This document shows positions 43,245-43,940 of a stretch of 59,207 bases of DNA, in pieces. Location of the stretch: sequence record OR844767; one strand, 5' to 3'. Both the position numbers and the translations under genes were made by a program. The notes beneath the pieces were generated by a model. It saw only the letters and a list, made by a program, of their open reading frames with translations, was not told the origin of the DNA and ran no database searches. How positions within the stretch are numbered: position 1 is the stretch's first letter; every line of letters begins with the position of its first letter. This stretch comes from Escherichia phage ECO111 5-P.

Positions 43245-43940
43245 CAGATAATTCCTTGATTAGTTTTTTATACTCTTTCCCGCCTTTCTTGCCGTTGAGT
43301 ACAGCGCCGATACAGGACTGCATCAGTAAACTTTGGGTGACATAACCCGCGTTTACCCGGCGCTTCGCGATTTTCGTTTCTGACCACAAATATCCTAACG
43401 GGTAATGCCGGGCGGCCGGGTGTCCCTCGGACATGAGGAAGGACACCGTGGCACGAAGGTTATTGTGGAAGTCGAGAACTATTTCGCGCTTTGACCGGGT
43501 TTCGACCCCGCCTCTTCGCCCTTCATCTTGCCGATCTGCTCCATTACCTGAGCGAACATCTTTTTTACTTCTTCAACGTCCGAGAACGTCAGACCAGCAA
43601 TCTTTTTCAAGGCGTCGAACTGCACCAGAAGCGGCAGCGTCTGTACCTTTTCCAGTTCGGCTTCTTCGTCGGCGGCCAGCGCGATGACATGTGCCACCAG
43701 CCCCGGCGCGTCCGATACCAGCGACACGGCGAAGCGCCCCGTAGCGATGGCCGTCAGGTCTTCCCCGGCAGTCTTCTGGTACAGGTCGAACAGGCCATCA
43801 AGGTCGTGATAGTGGACGCGGATGATTTTGGAAATGTCGTGGAAGGAAAGCCCACGGACGTTAAACGAGCCAGCCTTTTTACCGTGTCTGGCCGGGATGG
43901 TGATTTCTTCGATTTCTGGTGCGTAATCTGCTAATGACAT
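43237..43940 (-). CDS. tail assembly chaperone GT fusion (via -1 frameshift at 43560-43566)
   Basis: the -1 frame relative to G is open from 43572 to the stop at 43237 and overlaps G for about 90 nt; canonical slippery heptamer present. Confidence 0.5.
43479..43940 (-). CDS. tail assembly chaperone (lambda gpG-like)
   Basis: 153 aa; between the major tail protein and tape measure genes; contains the slippery site near its 3' end. Confidence 0.6.
   Translation of the reverse strand: MSLADYAPEIEEITIPARHGKKAGSFNVRGLSFHDISKIIRVHYHDLDGLFDLYQKTAGEDLTAIATGRFAVSLVSDAPGLVAHVIALAADEEAELEKVQTLPLLVQFDALKKIAGLTFSDVEEVKKMFAQVMEQIGKMKGEEAGSKPGQSAK
43560..43566 (-). other. programmed -1 ribosomal frameshift slippery heptamer A_AAA_AAG
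   Basis: plus-strand CTTTTTT at 43560-43566 gives mRNA A AAA AAG, with AAA AAG in the G reading frame (Lys-Lys). Confidence 0.55.

Follow-up and report, generated by a model that had tools for sequence, protein, structure and literature searches.

The 59,207-nt window analyzed here, from Escherichia phage ECO111 5-P (sequence record OR844767), carries on its minus strand a siphovirus tail assembly chaperone gene with the slippery heptamer A_AAA_AAG (43560 to 43566), which we regard with high confidence as a site of programmed −1 ribosomal frameshifting. This exact site is already known, since the product of the shift matches deposited joined proteins; it is annotated in phages Chi, Utah, and Siskin and in several related genera. 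The original prediction of a lambda-like G/GT pair is thus supported by (i) the joined records of relatives, (ii) the conservation of the heptamer, (iii) a T reading frame that has no usable start, and (iv) the termination of T at the tape measure gene.

Organization of the locus

On the minus strand, the window contains the genes for the major tail protein (45176 to 44037) and G (43940 to 43479), the T frame (to 43237), and the gene for the tape measure protein (from 43244), and the same order is annotated in Chi and its relatives. The major tail protein gene, recognized as an open reading frame (ORF) and from Chi-like annotations, encodes a C-terminal Ig-like domain and lies directly upstream of G. 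The G-like ORF starts with ATG at 43940, 9 nt downstream of the Shine-Dalgarno (SD) sequence AAGGAG (43950 to 43955, read directly from the minus strand), and ends with TAG at 43481 to 43479; its standard translation product has 153 amino acids. Codons 125 to 127 of G read GTA AAA AAG (43568 to 43560), which places the heptamer in the X_XXY_YYZ phase, with AAA AAG encoding Lys126 and Lys127. Both the position and the slippery phase were as originally predicted when inspected on the minus strand.

The −1 frame was likewise found to be open over the 43572-to-43237 interval that had been claimed for it: it is bounded on its 5′ side by a TGA at 43575 to 43573, two codons ahead of the heptamer, and terminates with TAA at 43239 to 43237, resulting in 111 codons. 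The T part that would be read in this frame after the shift (43237 to 43560) has 107 codons plus the TAA, and alignment divides it into a weakly conserved linker of about 25 residues, rich in Gly, Arg, and Asp, and a conserved T domain of about 75 amino acids. The predicted GT fusion, join(43940..43560, 43560..43237) on the minus strand, has 234 amino acids and the junction ...EEVKK/DVRSG...; the Glu-C peptide spanning this junction would be VKKDVRSGNGADRQDE. The tape measure gene (38949 to 43244, minus strand; 1,431 amino acids), annotated as such in Chi and relatives, starts with ATG at 43244, so that the overlap of the −1 frame with the tape measure start, also part of the original prediction, amounts to 8 nt (43237 to 43244; sequence ATGGCTAA).

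A GC-rich, terminator-like hairpin followed by a T-run is found between the major tail gene and G (44001 to 44020, minus strand). It has an 8-bp stem and a TTCG loop, and a terminator is annotated at the equivalent place in the records of Seifer, Bhz60, and HK97. This element may cause G/T and the tape measure gene to be transcribed less than the gene for the abundant tail tube protein.

Family assignment and existing annotation

A 2.2-kb region comprising the locus is approximately 98% identical to some 100 Chi-like phages of Salmonella and Escherichia (genus Chivirus, family Casjensviridae), and on the basis of this sequence identity the window is assigned to Chivirus. The 153-residue G protein matches the Pfam family PF23789 (Pre_tape_measure) with an E value of 3e-54 and 183.3 bits (cutoff, 27), and the match covers residues 1 to 150 of 153 and profile positions 1 to 146 of 149. 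Besides PF23789, the Pfam scan of G at E values of ≤1 returned weak unrelated matches only, and the NCBIfam scan of GT matched no family. PHROG 11703 spans the entire 234-residue fusion (E = 1e-114), and PHROG 9221 spans the T domain. A profile of the G family also matched TAL effector structures in the PDB (positions about 60 to 133; E = 1.9e-15). We rejected this match as the inflation, by summing over repeats, of a weak resemblance between helical motifs: each repeat contributes 3 to 11 bits with an E value of its own of at least 2, and no such match was obtained with the window protein alone. The single-sequence AlphaFold model of G had a mean pLDDT of 44 and was unusable.

We then derived the protein that a −1 shift at A_AAA_AAG would yield and searched for identical deposited sequences. 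The shift product of the window is identical to APD19345.1, the tail assembly chaperone of Escherichia phage Utah (KY014601), and the corresponding product of Chi is identical to AIU37952.1/YP_009101118.1, the product of Chi gene 23. In the Chi reference record (KM458633), gene 23, "tail assembly chaperone," is a coding sequence joined from two pieces that stands beside the unshifted gene 24. A 234-residue "tape measure chaperone" has been deposited for phage Siskin too, and Enc34, Seifer, Stilesk, AH2, and Salvo likewise have joined coding sequences, that of Salvo being marked with a "slippage point." The frameshift is absent from the text of the genome announcements of Chi and Utah; for these two phages it exists as a database annotation only. 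For Burkholderia phage AH2, a −1 site at AAAAAAG with products of 228 and 146 amino acids (gp55/gp56) has been predicted in a publication (Lynch et al. 2012, PMC3483164).

Most other chivirus records leave T unjoined, as a separate ORF of 50 to 69 amino acids; they give G and T the name "tail length tape measure protein," a mislabel in the case of T, or that of a "hypothetical protein"; and several records place the start of the tape measure gene 62 nt beyond the Chi ATG. The record of Salmonella phage 35 (NC_048632; locus positions 1501 to 2210) has single-base homopolymer indels in G/T that include the slippery A-run, where AAAAAGAA stands in place of AAAAAAGA; sequencing errors are their probable cause. 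Phage 37 (KR296691) was matched in two pieces as well. In the Enc34 record, T is followed by a 747-nt ORF, "putative tail related protein," and only then by a shortened tape measure gene (locus positions 1876 to 2700), at the position where the tape measure gene of other relatives directly begins; either the tape measure gene of Enc34 is possibly divided, or its sequence possibly contains a frameshift introduced by sequencing.

The practical value of the present analysis lies in annotation: a heptamer found throughout the family and a T frame devoid of its own start justify joining G and T in all Chi-like records. As a discovery it matters little, since G/GT frameshifting in long-tailed phages is textbook knowledge and the site had been annotated.

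Conservation of the slip site

A search identified roughly 230 family members. The locus was compared with those of 17 relatives whose G proteins are 27 to 97% identical to that of the window. A canonical, in-phase slippery heptamer is present at the homologous codon (about 117 to 133) in 16 of the 17: A_AAA_AAG in 13, A_AAA_AAA in FoX4, and G_GGA_AAC in Salvo and Bhz60. The remaining relative, DSS3-P1, has the degenerate G_GAA_AAG. The −1 frame is open from the homologous site in all 17 and ends about 57 to 58 nt or less from the tape measure start. In 12 relatives, including Chi and PIN2, its end lies 8 to 11 nt inside the tape measure gene; in 4 it lies 3 to 5 nt short of it; and in pCB2051-A it lies 58 nt short. 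The 8-nt overlap of T and the tape measure gene in the window is shared by 10 of 14 genus-level relatives, and that of Inception has 11 nt.

Several features indicate that conservation acts on the nucleotide sequence of the heptamer. The codon before Lys-Lys ends in A throughout, while the amino acid it encodes varies (GTA, GCA, ATA, CTA, or CCA). Moreover, GC-rich phages in which AAA is rare still have it at the site (it accounts for 2 of 31 Lys codons in AH2 and for 1 of 24 in FoX4). With only the amino acids and the local codon usage taken into account, the heptamer would occur jointly in 12 genus-level lineages with a probability of about 10^−18.8, a value that treats the lineages as independent, which at such divergences is reasonable and not exact. 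Conservation of the heptamer across relatives is thus far beyond chance. The bare heptanucleotide AAAAAAG is not enriched in the window (10 copies versus 7.2 ± 2.6 expected). Among the 10 copies, only that at 43560 stands in the slippery phase within a genuine gene and has a long −1 continuation (107 codons); the other slippery-phase copy in a longish open frame (6979, plus strand) is within no start-to-stop ORF of at least 50 amino acids.

A run of six As, extended to seven in FoX4, could also be a substrate for the RNA polymerase, which by slipping would generate a fraction of mRNAs that lack one A or gain two and whose standard translation yields GT, and the resulting protein would be hard to distinguish from that of ribosomal slippage. 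We consider such a change at the RNA level very improbable, for three reasons. (i) The bacterial cases described in a review occur on runs of 9 A or T (PMC5009743), as opposed to the six found here. (ii) The sites of Salvo and Bhz60 (G_GGA_AAC) and of DSS3-P1 (G_GAA_AAG) contain no long homopolymer and yet fit tRNA re-pairing. (iii) In 13 relatives the run is exactly A6 plus G, which is the best motif for ribosomal slippage, and has not drifted toward longer runs.

Even less credit can be given to a −1 shift at another, noncanonical site within the 94-nt overlap of the two frames, nearer to the G stop as in lambda. Surveys have found a canonical XXXYYYZ to be missing from many annotated tail chaperone overlaps and describe annotated slip positions as guesses (PMC10885494), but A_AAA_AAG is the sole canonical in-phase heptamer anywhere in the G gene of the window and the sole element of the overlap that is conserved at the nucleotide level across genera; the remainder of the overlap is weakly conserved in both frames.

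A number of further observations concern individual relatives. The homologous site of the Ruegeria phage DSS3-P1 (GTG GAA AAG; locus positions 1582 to 1590) is noncanonical in that only the A-site tRNA can re-pair perfectly, so that single-tRNA slippage or a different site may be used there. Providencia phage Stilesk has, in addition to the conserved A_AAA_AAG (1569 to 1575), a second in-phase copy (1632 to 1638) two codons before its G stop, and two alternative GT products are possible in this phage. The 8-nt overlap of the T stop and the tape measure start is also present in lambda T/H (lambda locus positions 1543 to 1550), and such an overlap suggests coupling of tape measure translation to the rare ribosomes that translate GT or to reinitiation.

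We also considered polymorphism among chiviruses as a possible sign of dual-coding constraint. A stretch of 330 nt (about 43200 to 43592, minus strand) contains 2 polymorphic columns, against 39 in the upstream 374 nt (Fisher P = 2e-9). This significant drop is not accounted for by dual coding alone, since the quiet stretch includes the T-only part that is read in a single frame, and patches with zero differences elsewhere suggest a mosaic history as a possible cause. The drop was therefore not counted as evidence for frameshifting.

Access to the T frame

The T domain could be made without any fusion to G if it were a separate small protein with its own start, either GTG 43446 or ATG 43434, as in the many chivirus records that carry a separate ORF of 50 to 69 amino acids here; in the window, a 69-residue ORF indeed extends from this GTG (43446 to 43237). 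The first ATG, GTG, or TTG in the T frame of the window is GTG 43446, at T-codon 39, but it is preceded by no SD-like sequence, and conserved residues of the T frame, IVLDFHNNLRAT, are located upstream of it. In addition, the first possible start codon of MA12, Inception, SS2019XI, Salvo, Bhz60, and pCB2051-A is inside or after the conserved EGH..A..YP core, so that the T domain cannot be made independently in these six relatives. An independently translated T would, moreover, leave the conserved heptamer unexplained, and we consider this possibility very improbable. The lack of a usable start and the conserved residues ahead of the GTG indicate that the conserved T domain is reachable only from the G frame, in agreement with ribosomal frameshifting at A_AAA_AAG.

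Length of the G/T overlap

The site had been predicted to lie about 25 codons before the G stop within an unusually long overlap of about 90 nt. We counted 26 sense codons of G after AAG and measured an open overlap of the 0 and −1 frames of 94 nt, in agreement with both figures. Compared with well-known systems, this overlap is long: 5 G codons follow the slip in lambda (G_GGA_AAG; open overlap of 64 nt), 6 in P2 E/E′ (T_TTT_TTG), and at most 17 in HK97 (open overlap of 52 nt), and none in KL1, where the site abuts the stop. Within the family, on the other hand, there is nothing unusual about it, since 18 to 38 G codons follow the slip in 15 genus-level relatives. The long distance is thus a conserved trait of the family and not a peculiarity of the window.

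In alignments, the approximately 25 residues after the slip are weakly conserved in both frames, which encode the tail of G in the 0 frame and the Gly/Arg/Asp-rich linker in the −1 frame. This dual-coded stretch therefore appears to be under little constraint, and, as judged from these alignments, low constraint is a plausible reason for the long overlap.

Search for stimulators and expected efficiency

No stimulator was detected in the window. The RNA downstream of the heptamer of the window showed no extra stability with respect to shuffled sequences (z = 0.33, −0.53, and −0.06) in folds of 50 nt and 90 nt and in a 45-nt fold that was computed for 16 loci. The upstream segment, GACGTTGAAGAAGT, contains no GGAG, GAGG, or AGGA that could serve as an SD-like stimulator, and an Rfam scan of positions 43100 to 44100 retrieved no frameshift element, only two subthreshold small-RNA matches on the opposite strand over the terminator hairpin. 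A 4-bp hairpin located 6 nt downstream, with apparent covariation in four genera, was rejected: only 53% of the cells pair in nine distinct sequences, a level matched by 52 of 500 shuffles and thus indistinguishable from controls. The possible downstream stem-loop proposed by the authors of the AH2 study does not beat shuffled sequences either (z = 0.01).

Folding of the other loci revealed that most relatives with A_AAA_AAG have no significant downstream fold. Salvo (1515 to 1570) and Bhz60 (1569 to 1625) have a hairpin of 11 to 12 bp that starts 6 nt after G_GGA_AAC (z = −3.0 and −2.7, respectively). Heptamer strength may be traded against a stimulator, a possibility suggested by these two related lineages only.

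We can suggest only tentatively, and with more doubt than conviction, that the family shifts on a bare heptamer without an RNA stimulator and that signal strength is traded between heptamer and structure, G_GGA_AAC being the weaker heptamer. If this were true, the long dual-coded stretch would be tolerated because it encodes two segments of low constraint, the G tail and the T linker; G would have a 26-residue C-terminal tail that is missing from GT and that might have a function of its own.

E. coli and its relatives possess a single tRNA-Lys, whose pairing with AAA is better than that with AAG, and this makes A_AAA_AAG one of the most shift-prone heptamers known there (PMC5009743; PMC4066793). 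In an E. coli reporter, heptamers free of stimulators reached at most about 10 times the background of 0.055% (PMC4066793). Since stimulator-free heptamers were weak in this reporter and no stimulator was detected here, the efficiency may be very low; it is probably on the order of a percent or less. Such a low value would suit a chaperone of which little is required relative to G; in lambda, the G:GT ratio is about 30:1 (PMC5009743).

Proposed mechanism

According to the proposed mechanism, most ribosomes would translate G to its TAG and release the 153-residue G protein. A minority, carrying two Lys-tRNAs on AAA AAG of GUA_AAA_AAG, would slip back by one base; both tRNAs would re-pair on AAA AAA, and translation would resume in the −1 frame from GAU. 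The outcome would be the 234-residue GT, composed of a G core of 127 residues, a flexible linker, and the conserved T domain. That the shift takes place at A_AAA_AAG is inferred from the phase of the heptamer, its conservation, and the architecture of the two frames; in the searchable literature, we found no experimental proof for any family member, be it the detection of both products, a peptide across the junction, or a reporter assay.

By analogy with lambda, G and GT may have the roles of the corresponding lambda proteins: many copies of G and few of GT would coat the tape measure protein, the T domain would next recruit the major tail protein, and neither chaperone would stay in the virion. 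An indirect hint of the last step comes from relatives. The list of virion proteins identified by mass spectrometry for the Klebsiella phages PIN1 and PIN2 includes the products of both flanking genes but neither the G nor the T homologue (PMC12264135); the homologues are PIN2_0023 and PIN2_0024, with 55% identity, and genes 0022 and 0025 are those represented in the virion table of these relatives. This absence fits chaperones that leave the particle, as those of the lambda type do.

Comparison with known systems

The closest known systems are Chi genes 23/24 (KM458633; Hendrix et al. 2015) and the corresponding locus of Utah, which have the same gene, heptamer, and joined product as the window. 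The GT protein of Utah is 100% identical to that of the window, and the 704 nt compared with Chi show 23 differences, none of them in the slip site; there is no difference of substance. AH2 is more distant. Its G homologue shares 32% identity, and its heptamer was placed at the homologous codon in our alignment; the differences consist in another genus and host and in 18 G codons after the slip, versus 26 in the window.

The heptamer itself is that of E. coli dnaX, with the same logic of tRNA-Lys re-pairing (PMC5009743), but the locus does not have the layout of a dnaX-type cassette: neither an SD-like stimulator about 10 nt 5′ nor a stable hairpin or pseudoknot 5 to 9 nt 3′ of the heptamer was found in the window. 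The dnaX cassette has an SD-like stimulator ahead of its heptamer and a strong hairpin behind it, shifts at about 50%, and yields a shorter product. The window differs from it in the absence of a detectable stimulator, in a shift that would yield the longer product, and in a low expected efficiency.

The system of reference is lambda G/GT, whose −1 frameshift was reportedly described by Levin, Hendrix, and Casjens in 1993 and by Xu, Hendrix, and Duda in 2004, 2013, and 2014. The two loci share (i) the order of major tail, G, T, and tape measure genes; (ii) a canonical heptamer ending in AAG and read by a single tRNA-Lys; (iii) a T frame that ends 8 nt inside the tape measure gene; and (iv) the expectation that neither product is in the virion. 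They differ in the heptamer (G_GGA_AAG in lambda versus A_AAA_AAG), in the distance of the slip from the G stop (5 versus 26 codons), and in the Pfam family, that of gpG not being PF23789; hhalign with an alignment of 16 G sequences detected no similarity to lambda gpG (probability, 0.06%; E = 0.73). The likeness to lambda is thus one of gene position and mechanism, without detectable sequence homology.

The locus nevertheless shows four sequence features that mark the G/GT class (Xu, Hendrix, and Duda 2004): two overlapping ORFs lie between the major tail and tape measure genes; an in-phase slippery sequence is found inside their 0/−1 overlap; T is conserved as a protein and has no translation start of its own; and the arrangement is kept among relatives despite the divergence of their sequences.
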